From positions 512,001 to 576,000 of the forward strand of contig CAVSDR010000003.1 in the NCBI GenBank assembly GCA_963726745.1: a DNA stretch of 64,000 nt, in the 5' to 3' direction. Positions 1 through 57,894 of the stretch are shown piece by piece (the stretch's first letter is position 1; each line of letters starts with the position of its first letter). Made by a program: the position numbers and the translations under genes. The DNA comes from an uncultured Verrucomicrobiae bacterium (GTDB lineage Bacteria; Verrucomicrobiota; Verrucomicrobiia; Chthoniobacterales; UBA10450). The notes under the pieces are model-generated. The model had not been told where the DNA came from. It saw only the letters and a list, made by a program, of their open reading frames with translations, and did not search any database.

Positions 1-688
1 GGCCTCGACGCTGCCGTAGCTCTGCCACATGGTGAGGAGTTCGCGGCAGAGGCGGACATTCTGCTCGATGATATTCAACTCCTTCGCGGAGGTGGCAGTC
101 TTGCCGTTCTCGGCTTCGGAGGCCTCGAGCTTTTTCGCGAGCAACTGCACGTAACCCCAGACGATCGTGAGCGGGTTTCCGAGATCGTGCACGAATTCCG
201 CGGAAGCCTGGCCGAGCGAGGCCAGCCGCTCCTTTTGCGCAAGCTCCTTGAGCAAGCGGTTGTTGAGCTCGCGGATCTCGGTCGCCGCCGTGTCGCCAGT
301 GCGCTGGACTGCGGGTGCGCTCGACGTTGCGGCTGATGACATCCCGCATTTCATGCGCATCGAAAGGCTTACTGATGTAGTCGTTTGCGCCCAGGCGGAG
401 CGCTTCCTGCGCGGTCTCGAGCGCGCCAAAGCCGGTGAGCATGATCACGGCGACGTGCGGATCGATCTCGCGAATGAGACGGAGACCATCGATGCCGTTG
501 GTTCCGGGCATGCGGATATCGGTGATGACCGCATCGGGATGCTTCTCGCGAAGAAGACGCAATCCATTTTCCACCGAGTCGGCCAGATGTACCTGATAGT
601 TTGGCTTCAGGAGCATGCGGAGACTTTCGCGCGGCCCCATCTCATCATCGATAACGAGGACTTGAGGAAGTTCAGGGCAGGCGGTCAT
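1..688 (-). CDS. Hybrid receiver-domain/histidine kinase (REC-HisKA), runs off the window start; one extra base near 310
   Basis: Manual translation from ATG at 688: MTACPELPQVLVIDDEMGPRESLRMLL..VITDIRMPGTNG..IMLTGFG..ANDYISKPF (complete receiver motifs). After a +1 shift at about 310 it reads KERLASLGQASAEFVHDLGNPLTIVWGY (H-box). Absent from the ORF track. Confidence 0.85.
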   Translation of the reverse strand, partial: MTACPELPQVLVIDDEMGPRESLRMLLKPNYQVHLADSVENGLRLLREKHPDAVITDIRMPGTNGIDGLRLIREIDPHVAVIMLTGFGALETAQEALRLGANDYISKPFDAHEMRDVISRNVERTRSPAHWRHGGDRDPRAQQPLAQGACAKGAAGLARPGFRGIRARSRKPAHDRLGLRAVAREKARGLRSRERQDCHLREGVEYHRAECPPLPRTPHHVAELRQRRG

Positions 689-710
689 AGGAGAAAGCAA
701 AGCCAGAGAA

Positions 711-726
711 AGCTAAGGCCGTGCCG
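711..726 (-). promoter_or_regulatory. Putative sigma54 (-24/-12) promoter for the REC-HK gene
   Basis: Minus strand CGGCACGGCCTTAGCT matches GG-N10-GC with the GGCACG core, about 22 nt upstream of the ATG at 688. Confidence 0.5.
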
Positions 727-748
727 TGGCCGAATGGAATCTTTCGAC

Positions 749-764
749 CGGCACGCTTTGCGCA
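749..764 (+). promoter_or_regulatory. Putative sigma54 promoter for the ketosynthase-kinase operon
   Basis: CGGCACGCTTTGCGCA has GG-N10-GC spacing with the GGCACG core; the TT before GC is not conserved. Confidence 0.4.
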
Positions 765-919
765 TAAAATCCGCCGCCGCATTGGCTGCCAAGAAACAGC
801 CGCCATTGGAAGATGCAACTTGTGAATCCGAAACGATCTGCGCCATATACATAAAGTTTACGAATGCGTAAAGACTGGTTTTGGAGCGAAAACAGCAGCG
901 CACGTGACAGTTACTGGAA

Positions 920-2164
920 ATGCATAAGCGAAATCGGGTGGTGGTGACGGGGATGGGCGTACTCGCTCCAAACGGCACCGGGTTAAAGGCCTTTTGGGAA
1001 TCGCTTCTGGAGGGACGAAGCGGGATCGGGCCGATCACGCTCTTCGATGCCACCGGCTACAAAAGCCGGATCGCGGGCGAGGTAAAAGACTTCGATCCGC
1101 TGGATTATATGGAGGCAGAACTAAAACCAAAGCGGATGGCACGGCATACGCAGTTGGCCTACGCCGCAACCATGATGGCGCTACGCGACGCAGGCCTGGA
1201 CCTGAACAATCTTGAACTCCCGAGCCCGACCCCGGTAATCATCGGGGTAAGCATGAATGCGATGGATGTGGTCGAGCGAGCTTTTCATGTTGTGCAAAAC
1301 GTGAGTCCGAATCGTGCGGCCCCCACAACCTCGGCTGCTTCCATCCCACAAGCGCCGGCGAACGTGATCGCTGATCGCTTGGGTGCCTGTGCGAATGCTT
1401 CCACCGTTTCCTCGGCCTGCCCTTCTGGACTCGACGCCTTGGCCGATGCCGCAGCGATGATCCGCAGCGGAGAGGTTGAATTGGCCGTAGCCGGCGGAAC
1501 GGACGCCCCAATCACTCCATTGGTGATGGCCAGCTTTATCGCCAGCGGCCTTAGTTCGCATAGAAACGACGAGCCCGAAAAAGCGAGTCGGCCCTTTGAT
1601 ATCGATCGCGACACTGGCGTCATTTCCGAAGGCGCAGGCATCATGATTCTCGAAAATCTAGAACGGGCGGAGGCTCGGGGCGCGCGGATTTACCTGGAGA
1701 TCGAGAGCTACGGGAAACAGCGCGACCGCGATCCGGAACGGCCCGCGTCTGGCCTGGAGGACTCGATGCACATCGCGCTGGGTAATGCCGGCTGGACCCC
1801 GGACGACGTGGATTACATATCCGCCTACGGGCCCGGTCACCCGATTCTTGACGCGGCTGAAATCCGGGTAGTGAAGAAATTCTTCGGGGCTCGCTCGTCC
1901 CTGATCCCGGTGAACTCGATTAAAGGCTCAACCGGGAATGCGCTCGCCGCGGGGGGGCCGTTTCAGGTGATCGCCTCCGCCCTCGCGATTCAGCACCAGC
2001 TGATCCCGCCGACGGCCAACTGCGATGTCCTGGATCCGTCCATCGACATGGATATCGTCCGATTTAAGCCGCGCAGGATTAAATTGAGCCGGCTTTTGAT
2101 CAACGTTCGCGGTCTGGGGGGAAGCGCCAGCACCATGGCCGTGAGCCAAGTAAATGGCCGATGA
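920..2164 (+). CDS. FabF-like beta-ketoacyl synthase family protein with altered catalytic residues (Cys kept; His to Tyr; His to Asn)
   Basis: RVVVTGMGV start and ASRPFDxDRDxxVISEGAG motif. Active-site segments SACPSG, ISAYGPGH and SIKGSTGNAL correspond to TACAT, VNAHATST and STKSMTGHLL in the canonical FabF at 56641. Confidence 0.9.
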   Translation: MHKRNRVVVTGMGVLAPNGTGLKAFWESLLEGRSGIGPITLFDATGYKSRIAGEVKDFDPLDYMEAELKPKRMARHTQLAYAATMMALRDAGLDLNNLELPSPTPVIIGVSMNAMDVVERAFHVVQNVSPNRAAPTTSAASIPQAPANVIADRLGACANASTVSSACPSGLDALADAAAMIRSGEVELAVAGGTDAPITPLVMASFIASGLSSHRNDEPEKASRPFDIDRDTGVISEGAGIMILENLERAEARGARIYLEIESYGKQRDRDPERPASGLEDSMHIALGNAGWTPDDVDYISAYGPGHPILDAAEIRVVKKFFGARSSLIPVNSIKGSTGNALAAGGPFQVIASALAIQHQLIPPTANCDVLDPSIDMDIVRFKPRRIKLSRLLINVRGLGGSASTMAVSQVNGR

Positions 2165-4683
2165 GTGGAGCGGCCATCTCCACCCTCATTGCGATTGCAG
2201 TCCAAGTCGCACTGGGATTAGCGGTCTACCAAGCGAATCGCCACCGTCGAGCAAACCAAAGCTTTCTACTGCTCTCGGGGGTGATTGGCATCTGGCTGGG
2301 AAGTCTCTACCAAACTATGACGGTGAGCCGCAGCGGCGAAGCGCTGTTCTACATCCGGCAAGCATCGGCCGCCGGGGCCTACATCTTGGTTGCTTTTCAC
2401 ATCCTTCGTTTGTCGATGCAGACAGGCGAGCACTCCTGGAAAGTCATTTTTTTCAAGGCCCGCTGGTGGCTGGGGATGGGCACGGCCGTTGCGGTTTTCT
2501 GCCAGACAAACTTTTTCCTGAAAGGAGTCAGCTGGACGCAGTCAGCAACATCTGGAGTTCCGACGCCAACGCCGGTCTACGGAACGGCTGCCTTCGTCTT
2601 CGTGGCCTATTTCATCATCGCGGGCGTTTCCTACGTGGTTGGATATGCCCGCGATCTGCGCCGCTCCAGCGGACGCCAGCAGGCTGAGATCGCCTTTATC
2701 CTCATCGGCGCGGTCGTGACGCTGGCCACTGTGCTGATCGCCTTTGTCCTGCGCTTCTTTGTTGATCAATCCCGGTTGATCTGGTTCGCGCCTTTTCGGA
2801 TCGTTCTCTTCAGCCTCATCATTGCCTACGGCATCGCGACCCAAAAGATCATGGAGGTGGGTCTCTTTATAAGGCGCGCGATTGGCTACAGCCTTCTCAC
2901 CCTTTACCTCCTCGCGCTTTACGGAGTCGTTTGGTGGCTGGTTCTCACCGTGGCGGGGCCCGTCTTTGCCGGTGATGCCTCCCGCATCGCCCATGTCCTG
3001 GCCGCCATCGCGATTGCTTTCGCCATGGCCCCTGCACGGGGAGTTTCTCAAGGCGTGGCCGACCGGCTATTCATAGGATCACGCCGCCTCGATTTTCGCG
3101 CCACGGTGAACAAGGCCATTGCCATCCTCCGGTCAGTCAGCACCATCAGCGAGTTGCTCGAAAAATTTGCCACCACCATCGCCGAGGCGGTGGATACCGA
3201 CCGCATCCTCATTCTGCAGCCGAGTCGCATCGGCTTTGCCCAGCAATACCCCCCATTGCCTGCGACCGGAAGAGTCGGCTTGATCGAGCTGAGTAAAGAC
3301 GATCCGCTGATTCGGCACCTCGAAATGAGTCCGGAACCGATCGTCCTGGACGAGATCAATCTCATCCGGCCGACTCCGCAAATGGAGCGTGTCGCCCGAC
3401 GAATGGGCTCGATTCAGATTGCGGTCGCCGTCGGCATTTTCTCCCGCGACCAACTTGCCGGCGTCCTGCTTCTAGGGCCTCGCCGCTCTGGCCAAATCTA
3501 TGGGAGCGCCGAGCAAAACGCACTGCAAGTGCTTTCGGGGCAGCTCGCGGTGGCGATCGAAAACGCGCACCTCTTTACCGAAGTGCAGAACGCGAAGATC
3601 TACAACGAAACCCTGCTGCAAAACATGACCACGGGGGTAATCGCGGCCGATGTGGACGGGCTGATTTCCGTCTTCAACCGGGAGGCGGAGCAGATCACCA
3701 ATCTGTCCTCGACAAATCTCGTGGGCGAAGCGGTCTACGTTTTACCGCTGGCCTTGCGCGAGGTCATCCAGGACACCCTGCGCTCCGGCGAGCGGCAGGA
3801 GAATCGGGAGCTCGAGCTGCAGGCAAAAGGCGAGGAAGTGATCGTGCGCGCGAGCAGCTCGGTCTTCCACGGCGAGGATGGGACCATGCTCGGCGCGATG
3901 ATGGTGTTGACCGATGTGACCGCGCTGAAGCGCCTGGAATTGCAGATTCGCCGGAGCGATCGCCTCGCCAGCCTGGGCACGCTTTCCGCCGGGATGGCGC
4001 ACGAAATCAAGAACCCGCTGGTCTCGATCAAAACCTTTGCGCAACTCTTGCCAGAGCGGTATCAGGACAGCGATTTCCGCGAGACTTTCTCGAATCTCAT
4101 CGGGCACGAGATCGACCGGATCGACTCCCTCGTGAACCAATTGCTCCGTTTCGCCAAGCCGACCAAGCCGCTCCTCAAGCCCGTGCACTTGCACGAAGTG
4201 CTGGAAAAGTCGCTCATGCTCGTCGGGCACCGCCTCTACCAGAAAGAAATCAAATTAACTCGTTCGTGGAATGCGGATGTGGATACTATCCGCGCTGATG
4301 GCGACCAGATGGAGCAGGTTTTCCTTAACTTTTTCCTGAACGCCATGGACGCGATGCAGCAGGGCGGCGAGCTCACCGTCTCCACCGAAATCCGCCCCGC
4401 AAATGACTGGGCGGCGCTCAAGGGCACCGGTCGCAGCGGCGAAATCCTGCGCGTGACCGTGCGCGACAACGGCGAGGGCATCAAGGCCGAGAACGTGGCC
4501 CACGTCTTCGATCCATTTTTTACCACCAAGGACTACGGCACCGGCCTCGGCCTTTCCGTGGTCCATGGGATTGTGCAGGAACATGGCGGCCAAATCGAAG
4601 TAGAGAGCGAGCTCGCCCAGGGAACCTCGTTCCACATCCTCCTCCCCTTGGTGCGCTTCGTTGAGGAGGTCGCCGCCGCATGA
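2161..4683 (+). CDS. Multi-pass membrane sensor histidine kinase (7TM-like N-terminus, GAF, PAS, HisKA, HATPase_c)
   Basis: About 9 hydrophobic helices in the first 290 aa, GAF-like segment ending LAVAIENA, PAS (TGVIAAD..FNREAE), H-box AHEIKNPL, N-box NFFLNAMDA, DNGEG, FDPFFTTK, GTGLGL. ATGA overlap with the upstream gene. Confidence 0.93.
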   Translation: MSGAAISTLIAIAVQVALGLAVYQANRHRRANQSFLLLSGVIGIWLGSLYQTMTVSRSGEALFYIRQASAAGAYILVAFHILRLSMQTGEHSWKVIFFKARWWLGMGTAVAVFCQTNFFLKGVSWTQSATSGVPTPTPVYGTAAFVFVAYFIIAGVSYVVGYARDLRRSSGRQQAEIAFILIGAVVTLATVLIAFVLRFFVDQSRLIWFAPFRIVLFSLIIAYGIATQKIMEVGLFIRRAIGYSLLTLYLLALYGVVWWLVLTVAGPVFAGDASRIAHVLAAIAIAFAMAPARGVSQGVADRLFIGSRRLDFRATVNKAIAILRSVSTISELLEKFATTIAEAVDTDRILILQPSRIGFAQQYPPLPATGRVGLIELSKDDPLIRHLEMSPEPIVLDEINLIRPTPQMERVARRMGSIQIAVAVGIFSRDQLAGVLLLGPRRSGQIYGSAEQNALQVLSGQLAVAIENAHLFTEVQNAKIYNETLLQNMTTGVIAADVDGLISVFNREAEQITNLSSTNLVGEAVYVLPLALREVIQDTLRSGERQENRELELQAKGEEVIVRASSSVFHGEDGTMLGAMMVLTDVTALKRLELQIRRSDRLASLGTLSAGMAHEIKNPLVSIKTFAQLLPERYQDSDFRETFSNLIGHEIDRIDSLVNQLLRFAKPTKPLLKPVHLHEVLEKSLMLVGHRLYQKEIKLTRSWNADVDTIRADGDQMEQVFLNFFLNAMDAMQQGGELTVSTEIRPANDWAALKGTGRSGEILRVTVRDNGEGIKAENVAHVFDPFFTTKDYGTGLGLSVVHGIVQEHGGQIEVESELAQGTSFHILLPLVRFVEEVAAA

Positions 4684-6686
4684 CCCTGCCTCCGGTCTGC
4701 ATCTTGTACAGTCAGGATGCCGACCTTGTCCGGCGCGTAAAAGCCTTCCTGCGGCTCGTCGCCCAGGTGCGTCACGTCGGCCAACTCGACCGGCTCGATG
4801 CCGTCCTGCAACAGGCCAGCCCGGCGTTGCTCTTCCTTGACCTGCGCGCGGAAGGCGCGCGCGATCTCGTCGGCCAGGTGCAAAAGGAGTGGCCGGAAGT
4901 TTTACTCACCGCGCTGGGTGCGCCGCGCTCCGAGCCGCTGCGCGAGGCCGAACAATGCGGCATCTATGCGGTGGAGGATTTGCAACTCGATCGCCGGCGC
5001 TTCCAGGCACTCGTTAGCCGCGGCTTCGATCACCTCCGCTTGATGCAAGAAAACCGCGAGCTGCGCGACCAAAACAACGCCACCCCTACGCCGGAACCGC
5101 CGCGCCGGCTGGACCAGACGCCCGACCGCTACGCCCCTTCCATGCCGCTGCTGCGCTTCCCGCGCGTCTTCCGCCGCTTCGATAATGTCGAGACGCTGCT
5201 CGCGACCGTCGTGGAAGGTGTGGCCGATGCCGCCGGGGTCACGCGCGTGGGTATTTTCTCGCGCATCCGCCAGAGCGATCGCTACCGCCTGCGCGCCGGG
5301 CTGCGTTGTCTCCAGGAAACTTACGAGATCGAATATGGCGAGCGCGACGCCCTCGTGCGCTGGTTCGAGCTGCATGCGCATTTGATTTGCCGGAACAATC
5401 TCGCGCAGGCTTCCGATGCTCCGCAGCGCGCCCTCATGCGCCGCGCGCTCGATACTTTTGGCGCCGAGGTCATCGTCCCGCTCTACGCTCGCGGGAGCAT
5501 CATCGGCTGGCTCTTCTTTGGCCACAAAGTCACCGGGCAACGCTTCGAATATCCCGACCTCGAGAACCTGATGATGCTCGCGGAGCATGTCTCGACCGTG
5601 CTCGAGAATGCCCTCCTCTACGAGGAAGTGACGGTGCAGAAAACTCTCGCCGAGACGCTCCTGAAATCGATTCCGCCGGGCATTGTTGCGACCGACGAGG
5701 ACGCGATCATTCGCTGGTTCAACCCGACCGCCGAACAAATCCTCGGCCTGCGCGCGGAGGACGTGATCAACCATCCCGTCGAGGCCGCCGGCACCCGGCT
5801 CGCCTCATTCCTGCGCGAAACTCTCGAGGCGAAATCCCATCTTCCTTCGCAGCAATGGATCGACGCCAACACCCGGCGTTCTCTCTCGGTGGAGACGCGG
5901 CGCCTCGTCGGCGAACGCACCCCATTGGGCGCCGTTGCGGTAGTGCAGGACCTGACGAACGAAGAGAGCCTGCGGCAAAAGAAAGACCTGCTCGATCGCG
6001 CCGCTTTCTGGACCGATCTGGCCGCAAGCATGTCGCACGAAATTCGTAATCCGCTGGTCGCGATCAAAACCTTCGCGCAGCTCCTGCCGGAGCGCTTCGA
6101 GGACGAGGATTTCCGGCGCGACTTCAATCACATCGTCGTCGAGGAGGTCGATCGCCTCGATAAGATCATCAGCCAAATCAACGACTTTGCGCATCCGCCG
6201 GAGTTGATCATGCGCCCGATCGACCTGCGTGCTTCCGTGCGCCGCGCGCTCGAGGTCGCACGTGAGAAGTTTCACACCAATGGCACCCCGGTGGAAATCG
6301 ACCTGCCGCCCGATCTCCCTCGCGTCCTCGGCGATGAAGGCGCACTCACCGAAGCCTTCGCCCATCTCGTTGCCAATGCCGCCGAGGCCACTCACGGCCA
6401 GGCGAAACCGAAGATCACCCTCGCGGCCAAATCCATTCGCACCGGCGAGGCCACCAGCGGCGTCGTCGTGATCGTGCAGGATAACGGCGGCGGCATTTCG
6501 CCCGATCTGAAGGACAAAGTCTTCTCGCCTTTCTGCACCACCAAGGCCCGCGGCATGGGCCTGGGCCTCCCGATCGTCAAGCGCACCGTGTTCGATCACA
6601 ACGGCCGCGTGGACATCGACTCGAACCCGCAGGGCACCTCCGTCAGCGTCATGCTTCCGGTGACGGAGTTGCGGCTTTCTTCCTAG
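4680..6686 (+). CDS. Cytoplasmic histidine kinase (degenerate receiver-like N-terminus, GAF, PAS, HisKA, HATPase_c)
   Basis: H-box SHEIRNPL, DNGGG, FSPFCTTK, GMGLGL, GAF ending VLENA, PAS GIVATD..FNPTAE. ATGA overlap with the upstream kinase. Confidence 0.9.
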   Translation: MTLPPVCILYSQDADLVRRVKAFLRLVAQVRHVGQLDRLDAVLQQASPALLFLDLRAEGARDLVGQVQKEWPEVLLTALGAPRSEPLREAEQCGIYAVEDLQLDRRRFQALVSRGFDHLRLMQENRELRDQNNATPTPEPPRRLDQTPDRYAPSMPLLRFPRVFRRFDNVETLLATVVEGVADAAGVTRVGIFSRIRQSDRYRLRAGLRCLQETYEIEYGERDALVRWFELHAHLICRNNLAQASDAPQRALMRRALDTFGAEVIVPLYARGSIIGWLFFGHKVTGQRFEYPDLENLMMLAEHVSTVLENALLYEEVTVQKTLAETLLKSIPPGIVATDEDAIIRWFNPTAEQILGLRAEDVINHPVEAAGTRLASFLRETLEAKSHLPSQQWIDANTRRSLSVETRRLVGERTPLGAVAVVQDLTNEESLRQKKDLLDRAAFWTDLAASMSHEIRNPLVAIKTFAQLLPERFEDEDFRRDFNHIVVEEVDRLDKIISQINDFAHPPELIMRPIDLRASVRRALEVAREKFHTNGTPVEIDLPPDLPRVLGDEGALTEAFAHLVANAAEATHGQAKPKITLAAKSIRTGEATSGVVVIVQDNGGGISPDLKDKVFSPFCTTKARGMGLGLPIVKRTVFDHNGRVDIDSNPQGTSVSVMLPVTELRLSS

Positions 6687-6755: not shown

Positions 6756-7703
6756 ATGATCGTCACCACCGACCAGCTTTACAAAGTCGCCTACAAGAAA
6801 TTCGCCGTCGGCGCTTACAACATCAACAACCTCGAGCAGACCATGGGGCTCTTCCGCGGCAACGTGCAGAGCAAAGCCCCGTTCATCATCCAGCTGTCTA
6901 AAGGCGCGCGGAATTACACCGACAAGCGCATGCTCGAAGCGATCATCCGCACCGCGGAGGAAATTTTCCCCGACGCAATCTTCGCGGTGCATCTCGACCA
7001 CGGCGACGAACAGACCTGCTACGACTGCATCGATAGCGGCTTCTACAGCTCGGTCATGATCGATGCGAGCCACGAGTCCTTCGAGGAAAACATCGCCATC
7101 ACCAAGCGCGTGGTCGAGCGCGCGCATGCCAAGGGCATCAGCGTCGAGGCGGAGCTCGGGATGCTCGGCGGCGTGGAGGAAGACATCAAAGTCGACGAGA
7201 AACACGCCTGCCTAACGAACCCTGAAGAAGCGGTCGAGTTCGTCAAGCAAACCGGCTGCGACTCGCTCGCGGCCGCGATCGGCACCAGCCACGGCGCCTA
7301 CAAATTCAAGGGCCAGCAGTCGCTCCGCTTCGACGTCATCGAGGCGATCTCCCAGAAGTGCCCCGGGATGCCCATCGTGATGCACGGCAGCTCCAGCGTG
7401 CCGGTCGAAGAGGTCAAACGAATCAACGCAGCCGGCGGCCAGCTCGACCCGAGCGCGCGCGGGGTGAACGAAGAGGAATACCTTCCGGCCGCCAAACTCG
7501 GCGTGACCAAGGTGAACATCGACACCGATGGCCGCCTCGTCTGGACGCGCGTGCACCGCGAGTTCTTCCGCGACAAGCCGGCCGAATTCGACTTCCGTCC
7601 GCCGGGCAAAGTTTTCATGCAGGCCTACGCCGATTTCATCGCGCACAAGAACGAGAAGCTCGGCTCGGCCGGCAAGCTCGACGAGATTCGCGCGAGCCTG
7701 TGA
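6756..7703 (+). CDS. fba: Class II fructose-bisphosphate aldolase
   Basis: AVGAYNINN, VHLDHG, VEAELG, AIGTSHG, VMHGSS and KVNIDTD motifs; start taken at MIVTT. Confidence 0.93.
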   Translation: MIVTTDQLYKVAYKKFAVGAYNINNLEQTMGLFRGNVQSKAPFIIQLSKGARNYTDKRMLEAIIRTAEEIFPDAIFAVHLDHGDEQTCYDCIDSGFYSSVMIDASHESFEENIAITKRVVERAHAKGISVEAELGMLGGVEEDIKVDEKHACLTNPEEAVEFVKQTGCDSLAAAIGTSHGAYKFKGQQSLRFDVIEAISQKCPGMPIVMHGSSSVPVEEVKRINAAGGQLDPSARGVNEEEYLPAAKLGVTKVNIDTDGRLVWTRVHREFFRDKPAEFDFRPPGKVFMQAYADFIAHKNEKLGSAGKLDEIRASL

Positions 7704-8720
7704 CGTTTACCGTCCAGGAATTGGCGGCGATTTCCGGCGGTGAGATCGTGGGCGATCCGCAGCAGTGTGTCACCGGCGCGGCGCCGCTCGGCGAGGCTGG
7801 CGAAGGTGACCTGACCTTCTTCGGCCACCCGAAATACGCCGCGCAACTTCGGCGCACCAAAGCGTCGGCTATTTTTGTCCCGGCCGATTTTGCCGAAGCG
7901 ACACCAGCGGTCCAAATCCGCGTGGAAAATCCCGCGAGGGCGTTCCAGGAAGTCGTCCTCAAGCTCGCGCCCGAGCCGGTGCGTTTCGCTCCCGGAATCC
8001 ATCCAAGCGCCGTGATCGCAGCGGACGTGAAGCTCGGCGCAGATGTCTCCGATCCAGCCGCATGCGATCATCGAGGCAGGCGTGGAAATCGCCGAGCGCA
8101 CCGTCATCGGCGCGAACTGCTATCTCGGTCACGGAACGAAGGTCGGGGCGGATTGTTTGCTCTATCCAAACGTTGTCGTCCGCGAACGCACCGTCATCGG
8201 CGCGCGCGTGATCTTGCACAGCGGCGTGGTCCTCGGCGCGGATGGTTTTGGCTTCGAGATCGTGGAAGGCCGCCAGCAAAAAGTCCCGCAAATCGGGATC
8301 GTGCAGATCGATGACGACGTGGAGATCGGCGCGAACAGCACCGTGGATCGCGCACGCTTTGGCCGCACCTGGATTCAGCAAGGTGCGAAGATCGACAACC
8401 TGGTCATGATCGCGCACAACGTCGTGGTGGGCGCGCATTCCGTGATCGCCGCGCAGACCGGCGTCGCCGGCAGTTCGCGCCTCGGCGCTTATGTCATGAT
8501 CGGCGGGCAAGCCGGCATTACCGGACATGTGGAAGTCGGCGAGCAGGTGATCATCGGTGCCAAAACCGGCGTCTCGAAAGATCTTCCCGCGAAGAGCGGG
8601 ATCTGGTGGGGCATCCCAGCCGCGCCCATTCGCGAGTCGCACGAGCAGCTCGCGTGGATTCGCCGGCTGGGGAAACTCTTCGCGCGGGTAAAGGCGCTGG
8701 AAGAGAAGCTCGGGAAATAG
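7700..8720 (+). CDS. lpxD: UDP-3-O-(3-hydroxyacyl)glucosamine N-acyltransferase; one extra base near 8049
   Basis: N-domain (GTG 7700, TFTVQELA..GDLTFF..NPARAF..GIHPSAVI) and hexapeptide repeats with GADGFGF, DNLVMIAHN, GITGH lie in two frames joined at GTCTCCGATC. Confidence 0.9.
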
Positions 8721-11071: not shown

Positions 11072-12366
11072 ATCCAGCAACCCGCGGGAATCACCGCGTT
11101 CTTCGGCACCACCACGATGCCGTCGCGGATGAAGTAATTCTCGCCGTCGAAGTTCTCCGGCTTCCCTTCCGGGGTAATGACCACGCCGTCGGCGATGCGT
11201 GCGTTTTTATCAATGATCGCGCGGTCGATCACGCAATTGCGCCCGATGCCCATCGGCGGCAATCCCGAGGGCACGGTCTCGGGCTCGATCTCGTAGTAGT
11301 CCGCGCCCATGACCACGCTGTTGCGAATGGTCGCGCCGGACTTGATCACGCTGCGCACCCCGATGACCGAGCGCTCGATGTGCGCATCGGAAATAATGCA
11401 GCCATCGGCGATGATCGCCTGCCGCAGCGCCGCGCCATTGATCTTGCTGCCTGGGAGAAACCGCGGGTGCGTGTAGATCGGCGCCGCCGCCTCGAAGAAG
11501 CTGTATTGCGGGAGGAGATCGGTCAGGTCGAGATTCGCTTCGTAAAAGGCGCGGATCGTCCCGATGTCTTCCCAGTAGCCGTCGAAGATGTAGCCGCTGA
11601 CAACTCGCTGCTTAATTGCCTGCGGGATGATGTGCTTTCCGAAGTCTGCGAGATCGTTCGCGAGGCATTCCACGAGCACGTCGCGCGTGAAGACGTAGAT
11701 GCCCATCGAGGCCTGGAAAAGGTCTTCGCCCTCGGGCGCGCCGATGGATTCGCGCAGCTCCGCCCCGAGCTTCATCTCGTCCAGGATCGCCGGGTCTTTC
11801 GGCTTTTCCTCGAAGCGCGTGATCCGGCGATTCTCGTCGCTCTGCATGATCCCGAAATCGGAGGCGAGCGCGCGACCCACCGGTTTCATCGCCAGGGTAA
11901 TGTCCGCCTTGGAAGCGATGTGTTGATGGAGCAGCAGGCGGAAATCCATCCGGTAAAGCTGATCGCCGCTGAGGATGAGAAAGTAATCATACGGCTGCTC
12001 GAGGAAGTAGCGCATGTTCTGCCGCACCGCGTCGGCCGTGCCCTGGTACCACTCGGAAGTTTCCGGGGTTTGCTGGGCCGCGAGAATGTCGACAAAACTG
12101 CGCGAGAAGTTGTCGAACTTGTAGCTCGCCTGGATGTGGCGATGGAGCGACATGGTGTTGAACTGCGTGAGCACGTAGATCGAGCGCAGCCCGCTGTTCA
12201 GGCAATTGCTGATCGGGATGTCGACCAGCCGATACTTCCCGCCCAGCGGCACCGCCGGTTTCGCGCGGTCCTTCGTCAAGGGAAACAAACGCGTGCCCGC
12301 ACCGCCGCCCATGACGATGGCTAAAGTTCGTTGAGTCGTTCCCGGTGGCAGCGCAGGCGTTTGCAT
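11068..12366 (-). CDS. glgC: Glucose-1-phosphate adenylyltransferase
   Basis: GGGAGTRLFPLTKDRAKPAVP, WYQGTADAV, LSGDQLYRMD, ASMGIY and WEDIGT motifs; start uncertain (12366 or 12390). Confidence 0.95.
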   Translation of the reverse strand: MQTPALPPGTTQRTLAIVMGGGAGTRLFPLTKDRAKPAVPLGGKYRLVDIPISNCLNSGLRSIYVLTQFNTMSLHRHIQASYKFDNFSRSFVDILAAQQTPETSEWYQGTADAVRQNMRYFLEQPYDYFLILSGDQLYRMDFRLLLHQHIASKADITLAMKPVGRALASDFGIMQSDENRRITRFEEKPKDPAILDEMKLGAELRESIGAPEGEDLFQASMGIYVFTRDVLVECLANDLADFGKHIIPQAIKQRVVSGYIFDGYWEDIGTIRAFYEANLDLTDLLPQYSFFEAAAPIYTHPRFLPGSKINGAALRQAIIADGCIISDAHIERSVIGVRSVIKSGATIRNSVVMGADYYEIEPETVPSGLPPMGIGRNCVIDRAIIDKNARIADGVVITPEGKPENFDGENYFIRDGIVVVPKNAVIPAGCWI

Positions 12367-12489
12367 TTCTTGGCTCACTTCTTCGCACATCCCTGGCCGC
12401 TTTGTCTCCCTCGAATCCTGCGGGCGCCCGCTGCTGCTCAGCGCGGTGGTCAAGGGAAGATGGAGGTGCTACCATGCGCCCTCTCTATT

Positions 12490-14362
12490 ATGTGCGGCAT
12501 TGTTGGCTACGTAGGTAAGGCGCAGGCGGGTCCGATTCTTCTCGATGGGCTCCGCCGCCTGGAGTATCGCGGCTACGACTCTGCCGGGGTCGCGATCGTC
12601 AACGGCGCCGGCATCGAGACGCGCAAATGCGCCGGGCGCATTGCGAATTTAGCCAGCCTCATGACCGAGCAGCCGCCCTCGGGCCACTACGGCATCAGCC
12701 ACACCCGCTGGGCCACGCACGGCGAGGTCACGGATGAAAACGCCCACCCGCACTTCGACCAAAGCGGCCAGCTCGCGCTGGTGCACAACGGGGTGATCGA
12801 GAACTACGCCGCGCTCAAGGAAGACCTCTTGCGCGAGGGCGAGCACACCTTCGTTTCCGAAACCGATACCGAAGTGCTGGCCCATCTCATCGGCAGCCTT
12901 TACGACAAGTCGGCCGCGGGCAGCCCCGATCCCGACGAAGGACAAGGCGCGGCTCGTGAACGCCGTCCGCGCCGCCTTGAAGCAGGTCATCGGCACCTAC
13001 GGGATCGCCTTGATCCATCGTGACATTCCCGATTTTCTCGTGGGCGCGCGGCGCGGCTCGCCACTCGTCCTCGGCGTCGGCAAGGAGGAGAACTTCCTCG
13101 CCAGCGACGTCAGCGCCGTCGTCGCTCACACCCGCGACGCGGTTTACTTGAACGACTTCGACATCGTCGCGGTCGAGCCGGACAAATTTGAGATCAGCTC
13201 GGTCCGCGGCGAGGCCGGCAATTACACCCTGAGCAAAGTCGAGTTCTCCGATGAGGACATTCGCAAGGGCGACTTCCCGCATTACATGCTCAAGGAAATC
13301 TTCGAGCAACCCTCGAGCGTGCGCGACGCCATGCGCGGCCGGCTCAACGCCGACGAGTGCACCGCGAAAATGGGCGGCTTGAACATGACGCCGGAGCAGT
13401 TGCGCGATGTCAGCCGCATCGTCCTCACCGGCTGCGGCACCGCGCTCCACGCCGGCATGATCGGCGAATACATTCTCGAGCAGCTCGCGGGCATTCCTAC
13501 GGAAGTGGAATTTGCCAGCGAGTTCCGCCATCGGAACACGCCCATGATTGGCGGCACGCTCGTCTTTGCCATCAGCCAGAGCGGAGAAACAGCCGACACG
13601 CTGGGCGCCTTGCGCGAAGCGCGCCGCAAAGGCTATCGCACCCTCGGCATCTGCAACAACGTCGCGAGCACGATCGCGCGCGAGAGCGACGGCGGCGTCT
13701 ACATGCACGCCGGGCCGGAGATCGGCGTCGCCGCGACCAAGTCCTTCACCTCCCAGGTCACCATCCTCACGCTCCTCGGCCTCTTGTTAGGCCGGATGCG
13801 CCACCTCTCCACCTCCGAGGGCACGCGCATCATCGCCGCACTCGAAGCCCTGCCCGGCCAGATCGAGCAGGCGCTCAAATTAAGCGACGAGATCAAGCGC
13901 ATCGCGCAAAAATATGTCGCCGCCGAAGGGATGCTCTTCTTTGGCCGGCAGTTTAACTATCCAGTCGCGCTTGAAGCAGCGCTTAAGGTTAAGGAGATCA
14001 CCTACCTCTTCGCCGAAGGCCACCCGAGCGCGGAGCTCAAGCACGGCATCATCGCCCTGGTGCGGCCCGAGTTGCCGTCTGTTTTCATCGCGCCGGACGA
14101 CGCCGTCTTTTCGAAGAACATCAACAACATCGAGCAGGTCAAAGCCCGCCGCGGCCCGGTCATCGCCATCACCACCGGCGAAGGCGCCGAGCGTTTGCAG
14201 AGCGTCGCCGACGACATCATCACCCTCCCGGCCTGCGAGGAATTTATCAGCCCCATCCTGACGGTGATTCCCACGCAATTGCTCGCCTACCATCTCGCGG
14301 TCGAGCTCGGCCGCGACGTCGACAAGCCGCGCAATCTTGCGAAGAGCGTGACCGTGGAATAG
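12490..14362 (+). CDS. glmS: Glutamine--fructose-6-phosphate transaminase; one extra base near 12931
   Basis: MCGIVGY, LEYRGYDSAG, HTRWATHG; second frame has SQSGETADT, VAATK and PRNLAKSVTVE. Confidence 0.95.
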
Positions 14363-37790: not shown

Positions 37791-38713
37791 CGCGCCCTCC
37801 TTTGCGCGGCGGACAACTCGATGATGCGGGCACAGAGTTGCGCGTAACCGATGCCCGCGGCCGCAGCCGCTTCCGGGAGCAGGCTCGCCTCGGTCATCCC
37901 GGGAATGGTGTTGATCTCGAGCACGCTCGGGGCGCCGTCTTCCGGGAGCATCACATCGACGCGCGAATAGACTTTGAGGCCTAACGAGCGATGCGCCCGC
38001 AGCGCCAGCTCCTGGATTGCCTGCGTCTGCTCTTCCGGCAGATGCGCCGGGCACACATGCTGGGCGGCGCCGCCCGCGCCGGGATTGAGGAAAGGATACT
38101 TGTTCGTGAAATCGTAGAAGCCGCCCTTCGGGATGATCTCGATGATCGGGAGCGCCTGCTCCCCGAGCACGCCGACGGTCAGCTCGCGGCCGGGGACAAA
38201 CTTCTCGATCAGGATGCGCTCGTCGTATTGCGCCGCTTCCTCGAGATGCTGCGCGAGCGCGCCGCTTTCCTTCACGATGTAAACCCCCACGGTCGAACCT
38301 TGGCGCGGCGCCTTGATCACCAGCGGCAAAGAAAGTGTCGGCTGTTCGCCGGGGCGCACCACCTCCCACTCCGGCGTGGCGACCTGGCCGGCATCGAATT
38401 TTTCCTTCGAAAGAATCTTGTCGAACGCGATCCGGCTCTCCTCCACCCCTTCGCCGGTGTAATCGATTCCGCGATCTTCCAGGATCTGCTGCACCTGGCC
38501 GTCCTCGCCGAAAGTCCCGTGGAGCGCGATGAAGGCCAGCTCGGTCCCGGCGGGCAACTCAAAGTCCGCCCCGCGCACATCCACCTCGCTCACTTCCGCG
38601 CCTAACGAGCGCAATGCCCGGGCCACGCCGGCGCCGGTGGCGAGCGAGACCTCGCGTTCCGCGCCCGGTCCGCCTTTCAAGACGGCGATCTTTTTGCCTG
38701 CCACTTCGCTCAC
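37787..38713 (-). CDS. ddl: D-alanine--D-alanine ligase
   Basis: GGPGAEREVS, ALHGTFGEDG, YDFTNKY and EINTIPGMT motifs. Confidence 0.95.
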   Translation of the reverse strand: MSEVAGKKIAVLKGGPGAEREVSLATGAGVARALRSLGAEVSEVDVRGADFELPAGTELAFIALHGTFGEDGQVQQILEDRGIDYTGEGVEESRIAFDKILSKEKFDAGQVATPEWEVVRPGEQPTLSLPLVIKAPRQGSTVGVYIVKESGALAQHLEEAAQYDERILIEKFVPGRELTVGVLGEQALPIIEIIPKGGFYDFTNKYPFLNPGAGGAAQHVCPAHLPEEQTQAIQELALRAHRSLGLKVYSRVDVMLPEDGAPSVLEINTIPGMTEASLLPEAAAAAGIGYAQLCARIIELSAAQRRAR

Positions 38714-41007
38714 GCTTCCTCCCCCACGATTTGCACTTCGGTTTCCAATTCGATCCCGCGCTGCTCGCGCGCGGCGGTCTTGATCCGGTGGATCAACTCC
38801 AGCACCTCCACTGCGGTCGCGCCGCCGTCGTTGACGATGAAATTTCCGTGCACTTCCGAGACGCGCGCCGGGCCGACGGCGCTGTTCTTTAGTCCCAATT
38901 CGTCGACTAATTTTCCCGCGGGGCAGGCGCCCGGGTTTTTGAAAATGCAGCCCGCGCTCGACGCCGCCGGCTGACTCGTGCGGCGCTTGTTTTGCGACTC
39001 GTCCAGCCGGCGCAGGATCTCGTCCTTCGAAGCCGGCAAGCCGCGGAAGACCGCGGAGACCGCGTAGTTTTTCTCCAGCGCCGGAACGTGCCGGTAGTGC
39101 ACCTCGAGTTCGGCCGCGGGCTTGATTTCCGCCTGGCCTTCGGCGTTGAGGAATCGCATCGAGACGACGTTGTCAAAAGTCTGCACGCCCATCGCGCCGG
39201 CGTTCATCCGCAGCGCGCCACCGACTTCGCCCGGGATGCCTTCCATCCATTCGAGCCCGCCGAGGCCGGCGGCTTTTCCGGCGTAGGCCACCTGCTTCAG
39301 TTTCGCGCCCACGCCGGCGGTGATCTCGTTGCCTAAAACCGTGATCCGCTCGAATTCGCCGCCTGCCGGATGCACGACCACGCCGCGAATGCCGCCGTCG
39401 CGCACGAGCAAATTCGAGCCGCGACCGATGACGAAGAGCGGCAGATTTTCCCGCCGGCAATAGCGAATGATCTCGGCGAACGCGCGCTCGTCGCGCGGCT
39501 CCACCCAGAATTGCGCCGGGCCGCCGACGCGCAAGGTGGTGTGCTTTGCCAGCGGCTCGTAAAGCCGGACGGCGCCTTCCGGGCCTACGATTTCGCGGAG
39601 TTGCTCGACGATCACGAGGTCGGCCGCGAGGAGCGAAAGCTGTTCATGGATGTTGCCCGCGCCCAGGCTGAGCACGAGGTCGCCGTCCTCGAGGTAATTC
39701 CCGAGGTCGCAGTGGAGTTGGCTCAGCCGCGGCTGGAATGTGACCTGCCGATGGCCGCGCGCCGCGATCTCATCCACGATCGTTTGCCCGGTGATCCCCG
39801 GAATGGGCGCTTCGCTCGCCGGGTAAACGTCGGCCACGAAGACGCGGTCGGCCTTTTCGAAAGCGGCGCCAAATTCCTTGCGCAGCGCTTTCGTGCGCGA
39901 GTAACGATGCGGCTGGAACATCGCGAGCACACGGTTGCGCCCGGCGGAACGTGCGGTCGCGAGCGTGGCGCGGATCTCGGTAGGATGGTGCGCGTAATCG
40001 TCCACCAAGAGATAGCGCGGGCTGGAATACTTGATCTCGAAACGCCGGCGCGCGTGCTGGAATTGGCCTAACGAGCTGACGATTTTCTCGAAGGGAACGC
40101 CCAGTTCGGTCGCGAGGGCGATCACGCCGAGCGCATTGCTCACGTTGTGCCGCCCGGGGACGTTCAGGACCGCTTCGCCGAGCTTTTCGCCGCGGCGAAA
40201 GACGCAGAAGACCGAGGCGAAATCGCGCAGCTCGATATCGGCGGCAAAATAGTCAGCACCTTCACGCAGCCCGTAGGAGACGACGCGCTCGCGGCCGCCG
40301 CAGAGGCGCGTGGCGTTGGCGTCATCCGCGCAGTAGAAAACCGTCCCGCTGGTCTGCGCGCAAAGTTGCGTGAAGACGGCATCGATCGCCGCGAGATCCT
40401 GGTAAAAGTCGAGATGCTCTTCCTCGATGTTCAGGATGAGCGCGTGCTCCGGATGGAAGAAGCGCAGGGTCCCATCGCTCTCGTCGCCTTCGGCGATGAA
40501 ATATTCGCCGCGCGGATTCCAATGCGCGTTCGAGCCCAGGATCGGAATCTCCGCGCCGACGTAATGTGACGGGTGCATCCCGCCTTCGCGGAAAACATGC
40601 GCCGCCATCGAGGAGGTGGTGGTCTTGCCGTGCATCCCCGCGATCACGATCCCGCGTTTACCCAGCATGATCGCAGCCAGCGCCTCGGCCCGGCGGATGG
40701 TCATGGTGCCGTTGGCGTGCGCCGCTGCGAGGATCGGGTTGTCCTTTTTGATCGCGGAAGAATAGACAACGAGCTCGGCATCGGCCGCGTCTTCCGCGAC
40801 GTGTTTCACGTGAAAGCGCAGGCCGAGACGCTGCAGGCGCGCGGTCTCCATCGAGCCCACGCGATCCGAGCCGCTGACCTGGTGACCGAGCTCGAGCAAG
40901 AGCGCGGCGATGCCGCTCATCCCGCTCCCGGCCACGCCTAACAAGTGGATGCGATGCCGCTCCTGCGTGAGCATTTTCTGGAGGGCAACGTCAGCGCCGG
41001 GCTTCAT
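38710..41007 (-). CDS. murC: Fused UDP-N-acetylmuramate--L-alanine ligase / UDP-N-acetylenolpyruvoylglucosamine reductase (MurC-MurB)
   Basis: MurC motifs GVAGSGMSG, GMHGKTTT, EGDESD and DDYAHHP, in frame with MurB motifs GRGSN, GIPG, MNAGA, SAGCIFKN and HGNF. Confidence 0.93.
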   Translation of the reverse strand: MKPGADVALQKMLTQERHRIHLLGVAGSGMSGIAALLLELGHQVSGSDRVGSMETARLQRLGLRFHVKHVAEDAADAELVVYSSAIKKDNPILAAAHANGTMTIRRAEALAAIMLGKRGIVIAGMHGKTTTSSMAAHVFREGGMHPSHYVGAEIPILGSNAHWNPRGEYFIAEGDESDGTLRFFHPEHALILNIEEEHLDFYQDLAAIDAVFTQLCAQTSGTVFYCADDANATRLCGGRERVVSYGLREGADYFAADIELRDFASVFCVFRRGEKLGEAVLNVPGRHNVSNALGVIALATELGVPFEKIVSSLGQFQHARRRFEIKYSSPRYLLVDDYAHHPTEIRATLATARSAGRNRVLAMFQPHRYSRTKALRKEFGAAFEKADRVFVADVYPASEAPIPGITGQTIVDEIAARGHRQVTFQPRLSQLHCDLGNYLEDGDLVLSLGAGNIHEQLSLLAADLVIVEQLREIVGPEGAVRLYEPLAKHTTLRVGGPAQFWVEPRDERAFAEIIRYCRRENLPLFVIGRGSNLLVRDGGIRGVVVHPAGGEFERITVLGNEITAGVGAKLKQVAYAGKAAGLGGLEWMEGIPGEVGGALRMNAGAMGVQTFDNVVSMRFLNAEGQAEIKPAAELEVHYRHVPALEKNYAVSAVFRGLPASKDEILRRLDESQNKRRTSQPAASSAGCIFKNPGACPAGKLVDELGLKNSAVGPARVSEVHGNFIVNDGGATAVEVLELIHRIKTAAREQRGIELETEVQIVGEEA

Positions 41008-42089: not shown

Positions 42090-42091
42090 CG

Positions 42092-56640: not shown

Positions 56641-57894
56641 ATGAACATCCACGATCGCAGAGTAGTCATCACCGGCATGGGCGTCGTTAGTCCCGTGGGC
56701 AACGATCTCGTCACCTTCTGGGATAACCTCAAAAACGGCGTCAGCGGCATCGGTCGGCTCGATGCTTTCGACCCCACCGGTTTTGACTGCAAGATCGCCG
56801 GGCAGGTGCGGAACTTCGATCCAAAGGATTACTTCAAGAACCCGAAGGACGCGCGCCGGACCGATCGTTTTACCCAGTTGGCAATGGCCGCGGCCAAGAT
56901 GTCGCTGGAAGATTGCGGGATCGACTTGGAAAAGACCGACCTGACGCGCTTCGGCGCGATCGTCAGCAGCGGCATCGGCGGCTTGAAAACGCTCGAGGAC
57001 CAGCACAGCGCGCTCTTGAACAAGGGGCCGACGCGCATGTCGCCGTTTACCATCCCGATGTTAATCAGCAACATGGCCAGTGGGTTAATCTCGATGGAAT
57101 ACGGCCTGCAAGGGCCAAACCTTTGCATCGTCACTGCCTGCGCCACTTCCAATAACGCCATCGGCGAATCCTGGCGGATGATTAAGTTCGGCGACGCCGA
57201 CATCTTCCTCGCGGGCGGCTCCGAGGCCGCGGTCGTGCCCATCGGCGTCGGCTCTTTCGCGAGCATGAAGGCGCTGAGCACCCGGAACGACGAACCGACG
57301 CGCGCTTCGCGTCCCTGGGATCGCGACCGCGATGGCTTCGTCATGAGCGAAGGCGCGGGTGTGGTCGTGGTCGAGGAACTCGAGCATGCGAAAGCGCGCG
57401 GCGCGAAAATCTATTGTGAACTCACCGGCTACGGTCTCTCCGCCGATGCCTACCACATGACCGCGCCGCCGCCCGATGGCAGCGGGGCCGCTCGCGCCAT
57501 GCGTATGGCGATGAAATATGCCCAAGCCAATCCGGAGGACATCGACTACGTCAATGCCCACGCTACTTCCACCGGCCTGGGCGATGTCGCGGAAACGCGC
57601 GCGATCAAGGCCGTTCTCGGAGAACACGCCTACAAGACTTCGCTCAGCTCCACCAAGTCAATGACCGGCCACTTGTTAGGCGGCGCCGGCGCGGTGGAGA
57701 TGGCTGCCTGCGCCTTGGCCATGCGCGACTCCGTCATTCCACCGACAATTAACCTCGAGAATCCGGATGAGGAATGCGACCTCGATTACACTCCGCTGGT
57801 CGCAAAGGAGAAGAAGGTGCGCATGGCGATGAATAACTCTTTCGGTTTCGGCGGACATAACGCCACCTTAATTGCGCAAGAGTTTACCGGCTAA
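56641..57894 (+). CDS. fabF: Beta-ketoacyl-ACP synthase II (canonical)
   Basis: Intact triad TACAT, NAHATST and KSMTGH; C-terminal NSFGFGG. Confidence 0.96.
   Translation: MNIHDRRVVITGMGVVSPVGNDLVTFWDNLKNGVSGIGRLDAFDPTGFDCKIAGQVRNFDPKDYFKNPKDARRTDRFTQLAMAAAKMSLEDCGIDLEKTDLTRFGAIVSSGIGGLKTLEDQHSALLNKGPTRMSPFTIPMLISNMASGLISMEYGLQGPNLCIVTACATSNNAIGESWRMIKFGDADIFLAGGSEAAVVPIGVGSFASMKALSTRNDEPTRASRPWDRDRDGFVMSEGAGVVVVEELEHAKARGAKIYCELTGYGLSADAYHMTAPPPDGSGAARAMRMAMKYAQANPEDIDYVNAHATSTGLGDVAETRAIKAVLGEHAYKTSLSSTKSMTGHLLGGAGAVEMAACALAMRDSVIPPTINLENPDEECDLDYTPLVAKEKKVRMAMNNSFGFGGHNATLIAQEFTG

Follow-up and report, generated by a model that had tools for sequence, protein, structure and literature searches.

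A FabF-like ketosynthase linked to sensor kinases in Verrucomicrobiota: a candidate signal-synthase/receptor operon with a sigma-54-type promoter

The 64,000-nucleotide stretch of DNA analyzed here (the window), from an uncultured Verrucomicrobiae bacterium, carries near its start a module made of a FabF-like ketosynthase gene (KS), the genes of two sensor histidine kinases (HK1 and HK2), and a divergently transcribed receiver-kinase gene. On balance, sequence comparisons favor the interpretation that this module is a signal-synthase/receptor operon whose output would run through sigma-54; it would work like the phcBSRQ system of Ralstonia but from unrelated parts. This reading is preferred because the enzyme is accompanied by tailoring genes that vary, a membrane sensor that changes fast, a channel for hydrophobic molecules, and a sigma-54 arm. 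Systems such as DarABC/PauR, CqsA/CqsS, and the fee cluster provide precedents for signaling. An earlier note on this DNA had proposed a quorum-sensing-like pairing of synthase and receptor, and that proposal is strengthened by the linkage to kinases, the separate clade of the enzyme, the FadL channels and tailoring enzymes of its relatives, and the sigma-54-type promoter. No description of the module was found in the open PMC and bioRxiv literature.

Gene order and enzyme-kinase linkage

The KS-HK1-HK2 order read in the earlier note, together with the domains and the ATGA stop/start overlaps at both the KS/HK1 and the HK1/HK2 junctions, was confirmed by gene calls and Pfam. KS contains the N- and C-terminal ketoacyl-synt domains. 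In HK1, a match to HisKA_7TM (E 4.5e-6; 27.1 bits, just below the 28.6 cut-off) is followed by GAF-PAS-HisKA-HATPase, and a hydropathy scan finds six segments within the first 330 residues. HK2 has an extra N-terminal degenerate receiver-like domain of approximately 130 residues, with no Pfam match here; its homolog at the metagenome locus L182 gives a Pfam Response_reg match of 33.6 bits. The divergent receiver-HisKA hybrid is likewise present with its domains, starting at 688 and continuing about 465 nucleotides (nt) beyond the window start.

The homologs compared are designated by L numbers (loci) and G numbers (genomes), with G000 for the genome of the window; its close relatives are named Chthoniobacterales. 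The main set comprises 54 clade loci with wide flanks, 17 from the same family and 37 from another class, after removal of L179, which has an ordinary Cys-His-His enzyme and no kinase. The other class is presumably Kiritimatiellia, a label taken from the name of one co-grouping protein cluster. Four unpublished genomes (G001, G008, G030, and G035) are counted with the family in the enzyme search and in the kinase linkage, and none belongs to the 54-locus set; G001, G008, and G030 also enter the promoter-motif counts and two alignments, and G761 enters the family count of FadL.

An enzyme match of at least 54% identity was found in 32 of 36 genomes searched from this soil family (in three of them in pieces), and none of 24 genomes from other families of the order exceeded 40% identity. 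A second tier of homologs occurs in 37 genomes of other classes, within a phylum sample of 401 genomes in which up to four candidates per genome were scored. The expected link to a kinase was borne out: HK1 lies directly after the enzyme in all 54 clade loci, with a stop/start overlap in 32, whereas a 7TM-type GAF-PAS kinase was beside ordinary FabF in 0 of 65 loci. HK2 follows HK1 in 48/54 clade loci (five of the six misses are at ends of the available sequence), and a receiver-kinase ortholog is present in 51/54. Among 29 further family loci, partly from the same genomes, HK1 follows the enzyme in 28, the single miss being a contig end. Four family genomes are without an enzyme match; three of them also have no HK1 match (66, 92, and 90% complete), and the fourth has the end of the enzyme at a contig edge.

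The association was also recovered from the kinase side. A profile of the transmembrane (TM) domain matched in 71 of the 401 genomes, and 20 previously unseen loci were examined, including 11 of the 22 weaker matches in family f19. An intact clade enzyme lies directly upstream in 15 of these and a frameshifted one in another; a further locus begins at a contig edge. In the other three (L349, L350, and L351), the enzyme is deleted or reduced to a stub while the kinase is kept, and no clade copy was found elsewhere in those genomes, as would be expected for receptor-only strains. A search of 301 genomes from another phylum placed a kinase in the operon in 11 of the 13 top matches examined (two of these kinases are partial or fragmented); the rest were one contig end and one housekeeping FabF. 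The Cys-His-His triad is largely intact in these members. Among 17 lower matches from this phylum with short flanks, a kinase was seen in one only (L295). Among the metagenome matches listed, which are mostly ordinary FabF, 5 of 80 loci combine a ketosynthase and a TM kinase.

Family f19 (L356–L366) carries a compact version of the module, composed of a receiver-kinase, an enzyme with Trp303, a TM kinase, a degenerate second kinase, and a protein of about 290 residues with a weak match to the streptomycin-adenylyltransferase family. ThiF and metallo-beta-lactamase-fold genes are present in one of these loci (L362).

The enzymes were placed with FastTree and a quick IQ-TREE analysis with SH-aLRT support; the IQ-TREE tree has 101 rows and an arbitrary root. 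Every one of its 34 kinase-linked enzymes belongs to a single group of 61 rows (SH-aLRT 92) that is distinct from housekeeping FabF, and the Verrucomicrobiota kinase-linked clade (SH-aLRT 100) does not nest with housekeeping FabF. The separate ketosynthase clade anticipated in the earlier note thus holds with respect to housekeeping FabF, in a tree without chain-length factors. The His-His state is likely ancestral, as far as an arbitrarily rooted tree indicates. A second ketosynthase paralog in this genome (L268:6269-7945; G000 contig C6, about 189300–190900) is His-His with odd flanking motifs; it groups with the kinase-linked enzymes in the tree, has no kinase beside it, and is preceded by a gene of 146 codons whose product resembles, by eye, a cyclase/START protein.

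A remodeled active site and changing partner genes

The predicted model of KS (pLDDT 79.6) has the thiolase/FabF fold, with a Foldseek TM-score of 0.92 to Bacillus subtilis FabF (PDB 4ls8). Against the NCBIfam fabF model TIGR03150 (cut-off 494 bits), KS scores 350 and the enzyme encoded at 56641 scores 637 with a Cys-His-His triad, which verifies the normal fabF seen there by the earlier note. As this housekeeping FabF is present, the module enzyme is not needed for elongation. The operon was also said to have no acyl carrier protein (ACP) gene, and indeed no ACP motif was found anywhere in the window; the sole motif match in the genome is on contig C6.

FabF residue equivalents were mapped through an alignment of the window's own FabF and that of B. 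subtilis. KS retains the equivalents of Cys163, Asp265, and Lys335, as well as the basic ACP-docking patch (region 1) K69/K71/R72, which is mostly retained across the clade loci. Its triad is Cys167-Tyr303-Asn340 in place of Cys-His-His, and the other replacements are Phe398 to Arg, Phe400 to Leu, and Asn404 to Ala, at KS positions 397, 399, and 403; the FabF GFGG gate loop with Phe400 and Asn404 is therefore not conserved, nor is loop 2 intact. Phe398 presumably lines the acyl pocket in FabF. KS was rejected as a housekeeping FabF, since it is below the TIGR03150 cut-off, belongs to a separate clade, and has a changed triad and gate loop.

Across the 54 clade loci, Cys is invariant at the nucleophile position and the Asp265 equivalent is present in 52. 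Position 303 is His in 33, Tyr in 17, and Asn in 4, and position 340 is Asn in 47, His in 4, Cys in 2, and Ser in 1; the resulting 303/340 pairs are His/Asn (30), Tyr/Asn (17), Asn/His (4), His/Cys (2), and His/Ser (1). Position 397 is His in 35/54 and Arg in 19/54, and Phe is found at position 399 in only 9/54. The 11 enzymes of family f19 have Trp (10) or Val (1) at position 303. According to the accessible part of a study on FabF, mutation of Asp265 lowers transacylation 200-300-fold and His340 is essential for condensation (bioRxiv 2021.02.13.431092). With Cys and Asp265 retained and His340 mostly replaced by Asn, this residue pattern suggests that enzymes of the clade can be acylated but do not perform normal elongation. 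KS is under strong purifying selection, with a nonsynonymous divergence (dN) of about 0.10 against a synonymous divergence (dS) of at least 2 relative to four close orthologs.

The genes around the module change with lineage. A FadL-family channel is found in 34 of the 37 other-class loci (two misses are at contig ends); its gene is in most cases divergent, with the receiver-kinase gene after it. A FAD oxidase is encoded in 16/37 of these loci (the best solved match of one member is p-cresol methylhydroxylase, E 2e-60), methyltransferases in 9/37 (class I in 7, O-methyltransferase in 3), and a FeeM-like acyltransferase-aminotransferase with PlsY in 4/37. A regulator follows HK2 in 21/37, either a sigma-54 activator (15) or a receiver-Fis protein (6). 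In the other phylum, 7 of the 11 kinase-linked loci add reductase, ICMT-type or other methyltransferase, cyclase, or radical-SAM genes, and three have FadL. A reductase and a carboxyl-methyltransferase-like gene accompany the ketosynthase in L306, L308, and L311, a set whose product, by analogy, might be a methyl 3-hydroxy-acyl ester resembling the Ralstonia signal. At the metagenome locus L182 the module is complete and is joined by a B12 radical-SAM gene; a gene for the sigma-54 factor (rpoN, L182:1119-2354) lies beside it.

FadL is absent from all 17 family loci, 16 of which encode a lantibiotic-dehydratase-N protein after the receiver-kinase. The corresponding gene in this genome (PEARL-like; L001:12322-14478, minus strand) lies just before the window start, in the slot where other lineages carry the FAD oxidase or methyltransferase. 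Judged from this position, its product may be a sigma-54-controlled modifying enzyme in this lineage.

The TM domain of HK1 is the fastest-changing part, with a mean identity of 0.53 in the family and 0.31 in the other class. A complex predicted for KS with residues 1–585 of HK1 (score 0.00, mark 0.32) carries no weight either way.

Conserved elements of the intergenic region

To the features described in the earlier note can be added three conserved elements between KS and the receiver-kinase gene: a sigma-54-type site, a palindrome, and a nonamer. Sigma-54-type sites were accepted at a score of at least 6/8, expectations were derived from single-base shuffles, and the window's own locus is counted; promoter extraction missed 1/38 family and 6/38 other-class loci. 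A site facing the receiver-kinase or FadL operon was found in 31/37 family loci (1.0 expected) and 15/32 other-class loci (0.6 expected), and on the opposite strand in 5/37 and 2/32, respectively. The -12 element of the family site is TAGC. In f19 and other distant groups, 13 loci were scanned and none gave a strict-pattern site.

The palindrome, with up to two mismatches, occurs in 27/37 family loci (0.4 expected) and 0/32 other-class loci, in a count where the motif was derived from the same loci and kin are not independent. It lies about 80–90 nt upstream of the sigma-54-type site, next to a DnaA-box-like nonamer. The exact nonamer TTWTNCACA, which we take to be the DnaA consensus, is present in 31/37 family loci (0.72 expected) and 4/32 elsewhere. 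It often has a second copy about 20 nt further on in the family intergenic regions, and only 53 such sites exist in the whole 3.4-Mb genome; this nonamer could instead be a repeat site for a regulator.

A scan of G000 gave 21 sigma-54-like matches, and only this locus combines the site with the palindrome, so that no target set was assigned. Six candidate cognate activators are encoded in this genome, at 35–41% identity. The next-best sigma-54-type sites (G000 C2:125859, minus strand, and C3:584338, plus strand) are just upstream of a PilT/PilU-family ATPase gene and a run of pilin-like genes, which points to a possible sigma-54 pilus regulon that is not tied to the module.

Table 1. Features of the module and of the housekeeping fabF in the window.
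Feature	Position	Strand	Basis
Receiver-HisKA-HATPase hybrid kinase, 5' part, divergent from KS	1..688	-	Pfam; two-frame match to ortholog L033 at 92% and 78%
Sigma-54-type -24/-12 site facing receiver-kinase gene	710..726	-	Motif score across loci
Conserved 14-bp palindrome, CAAG-n-TGCA-n-CTTG type, candidate activator site	809..822	.	Recurrence across family loci
DnaA-box-like nonamer, degenerate here (7/9 matching)	821..829	.	Motif match in family loci
KS: FabF-fold ketosynthase homolog, 414 aa, remodeled active site; candidate signal synthase or acyl sensor	920..2164	+	Pfam, NCBIfam, predicted fold, tree
Cys167, equivalent of FabF nucleophile Cys163	1418..1420	+	Cys in 54/54 clade loci
Tyr303 replacing FabF His303	1826..1828	+	Alignment
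Asn340 replacing FabF His340	1937..1939	+	Alignment
Remodeled gate loop: Arg397 for Phe398, Leu399 for gate residue Phe400	2108..2116	+	Alignment
HK1: multi-TM (HisKA_7TM-like)-GAF-PAS-HisKA-HATPase sensor kinase, 840 aa, predicted phospho-His614; candidate receptor	2161..4683	+	Pfam; Atlas feature score 0.96 to HisKA_7TM clusters
HK2: degenerate receiver-GAF-PAS-HisKA-HATPase soluble kinase, 668 aa, predicted phospho-His453	4680..6686	+	Pfam, homolog comparison
Housekeeping FabF, Cys-His-His, outside module	56641..57894	+	NCBIfam, alignment

Proposed circuit, known systems, and alternatives

In the circuit that we propose, KS would take an acyl group from acyl-ACP onto Cys167, skip normal malonyl elongation, and pass the acyl group to another acceptor, by acyl transfer or head-to-head coupling. 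The product would be a small signal resembling a lipid, to be completed in relatives by the reductases, methyltransferases, or radical-SAM enzymes that the same operon encodes. The signal would then partition into the inner membrane and bind the multi-TM domain of HK1, and in most other-class relatives the FadL channel would carry it across the outer membrane. The domains observed in HK1, HK2, and the receiver-kinase are consistent with a branched phosphorelay to a sigma-54 activator, which is encoded beside HK2 in many relatives and would be encoded elsewhere in this genome. This activator would turn on the divergent sigma-54-type promoter and thus raise the level of the receiver-kinase in a feedback loop; in relatives, the same promoter would raise FadL plus a modifying enzyme.

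The closest parallel is phcBSRQ, where a lipid-signal enzyme (a candidate one in the module) shares its locus with a sensor kinase of the membrane, a soluble protein that combines receiver and kinase, and an additional regulator, as presented in the accessible part of the source (PMC8578825). An enzyme, a membrane kinase, and a receiver-kinase are likewise united in the locus described here, and the methyltransferases of many relatives recall the Ralstonia system, in a comparison with PhcB made by description only. In contrast to the methyltransferase PhcB, the constant enzyme of the module has a FabF fold, and this operon has no methyltransferase; the kinase is of the HisKA_7TM-GAF-PAS type and is joined by a second GAF-PAS kinase, and the output appears to be sigma-54-dependent rather than governed by the LysR-type PhcA.

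PpyS is a thiolase-fold ketosynthase that stands alone and produces a signal with no ACP or reductases of its own, and its modeled Cys-His-Asn triad is the commonest state in the module clade (30/54). However, PpyS was modeled on OleA, needs Glu105, and has a LuxR-type receptor, as far as the accessible part of its description goes (PMC4578411). Compared by these described features, KS is closest to FabF in sequence and fold, has Tyr303, and is paired with a kinase; membership of the PpyS type was rejected on the basis of the FabF scaffold, Tyr303, and neighbors that are histidine kinases and not a LuxR-type receptor. With FabF/KAS II, as documented in the parts of the sources at hand, the enzyme shares the fold, the nucleophilic Cys, the Asp265 and Lys335 equivalents, and the region-1 ACP-docking residues (PMC7138838; bioRxiv 2021.02.13.431092; PDB 4ls8, 1j3n), but it is not set in a fab operon.

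The PrsK/PrsR system of PEP-CTERM regulation also combines a multi-TM GAF kinase, a sigma-54 activator, and a promoter that has an upstream motif in addition to its -24/-12 site, with no ketosynthase in the system as the accessible part of its description gives it (PMC1569441). The earlier note had linked HK1 to PrsK-type kinases, which did not hold: HK1 reaches 86.7 bits against a cut-off of 300 (TIGR02916), over residues 591–829 only, that is, the kinase core, and was rejected as a PrsK. A separate PrsK-PrsR-PrsT-like locus is present in this genome (L265; G000 contig C7, about 38700–43000), with PrsR above its cut-off, a PrsK fragment at 289 of 300 bits, and a partial TPR protein.

In Sinorhizobium, a FadL-family channel serves the uptake of long-chain N-acyl homoserine lactone signals, in the part of the report available (PMC9938287); the frequent FadL of other-class module loci resembles this use of the channel for a hydrophobic signal, but no LuxI/LuxR-type gene was seen in module loci, and this genome has no FadL match. 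Finally, the accessible part of a study on anammox bacteria describes amxFabF2/amxFabFmut, an extra FabF homolog with altered His residues and with radical-SAM neighbors, which some module relatives also have; FabFmut differs in having no Cys and in pairing with an adjacent active FabF, and that part describes no signaling kinase (bioRxiv 10.64898/2026.05.19.726425).

Several observations weigh against a synthase/receptor pair. In this genome (94.7% complete) no FadL match was found, only 10 of 61 family genomes have one, and the KS operon contains no tailoring enzyme. The two catalytic positions vary widely (H/N, Y/N, N/H, H/C, H/S, and W/N), the pantetheine-binding residues Thr305 and Thr307 are both replaced in KS, and four loop-2 residues are deleted relative to FabF, all of which would also fit a binding-only protein. 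L295, a distant FadL-ketosynthase-TM kinase locus, has Ser for the catalytic Cys. Co-variation is opposite in the two groups: the enzyme tracks the TM domain best in 32 other-class loci (partial r 0.44 versus -0.07 to 0.31), whereas it tracks HK2 better in 11 family loci (0.77–0.84 versus 0.39 for the TM domain). The loci are related, and the counts given above therefore overstate independence. The receiver-kinase is, moreover, frameshifted in this assembly: compared with ortholog L033, its frame is split by a single additional base near 309, a point that the earlier note had overlooked. Two housekeeping-type genes of the window, named by eye (LpxD-like, 7358-8720; GlmS-like, 12331-14362), are also each split over two frames, which suggests insertion/deletion errors in the assembly, and the receiver-kinase frameshift may for this reason be an assembly error; no contig from two DNA sequencing runs clearly spans it.

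The absence of FadL and tailoring genes from this genome keeps an acyl-sensor role among the candidates. The KS fold would then capture acyl-ACP or acyl-CoA on its Cys, regulate HK1 or HK2 by contact, and report the acyl pool. This alternative, which we hold to be a minor but credible one, is favored by the large aromatic residues that two lineages have in place of His303 (Tyr in this one and Trp in f19), by the Cys-to-Ser member L295, and by the stop/start overlaps with HK1, which suggest matched amounts; it is at odds with the tailoring genes located between enzyme and kinase in related operons, the full triad of basal members, and the persistence of the kinase after enzyme loss in three loci. 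We judge it unlikely that the module is a membrane-lipid homeostasis loop devoid of cell-to-cell signaling, in which the enzyme and its partners would make or remodel a retained membrane lipid, HK1 would read the membrane state, and FadL would import fatty acids. Partners such as PlsY-like proteins, phospholipid-methyltransferase-like proteins (ICMT/PEMT), and FadL all have ordinary lipid roles, but the partner set varies by locus and the TM domain changes fastest, which suits specificity more than homeostasis, and a phenol-oxidase-type enzyme and O-methyltransferases are probably not usual membrane-lipid enzymes.

It is improbable that KS acts like a chain-length factor, forming a heterodimer with an active ketosynthase encoded elsewhere (the housekeeping FabF or the C6 paralog) and altering its product. 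The anammox FabF2/FabFmut heterodimer, as reported in the accessible part of that study, offers a precedent (bioRxiv 10.64898/2026.05.19.726425), and the His-His C6 paralog of this genome falls in the wider kinase-linked group. FabFmut, however, lost its Cys (Val or Thr) and adjoins its partner, whereas the 54 clade loci all retain the Cys and showed no second ketosynthase; membership of the chain-length-factor or amxFabFmut type was rejected on these grounds, with one KS per clade locus and no adjacent active partner. The idea that KS is an incidental neighbor, a redundant FabF copy carried by synteny, is the least probable by far. Flanking housekeeping genes are also partly syntenic within the family, but the pairing persists between classes and phyla whose flanking genes have been entirely exchanged, and the enzyme is under strong purifying selection; chance synteny is effectively refuted by the linkage in the clade loci, the other-phylum loci, and the reverse-search loci.

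A broader form of the signal-synthase/receptor reading is tentative. It would make the module a widespread new class of cell-to-cell signaling, in which enzymes derived from FabF supply 7TM kinases with acyl signals that differ between lineages. In the soil Chthoniobacterales, the newly evolved active site (Cys-Tyr-Asn, together with His307 and Arg397, which are also new) might perform new acyl-transfer chemistry or have become the acyl sensor of the kinase, and the DnaA boxes might tie the circuit to the replication state.

The module is conserved across phyla, with a function proposed from its genes, and has been kept in several bacterial lineages, classes, and phyla with few cultured members. 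It has few parts, which can be expressed heterologously, and its conserved promoter offers a ready reporter. If the module both makes and senses a signal, the ketosynthase active-site series His-His, His-Asn, Tyr-Asn, and Trp-Asn would be a natural resource for finding new acyl chemistry, a ligand class would be named for HisKA_7TM kinases, and these lineages would have a chemical communication system of a new build.

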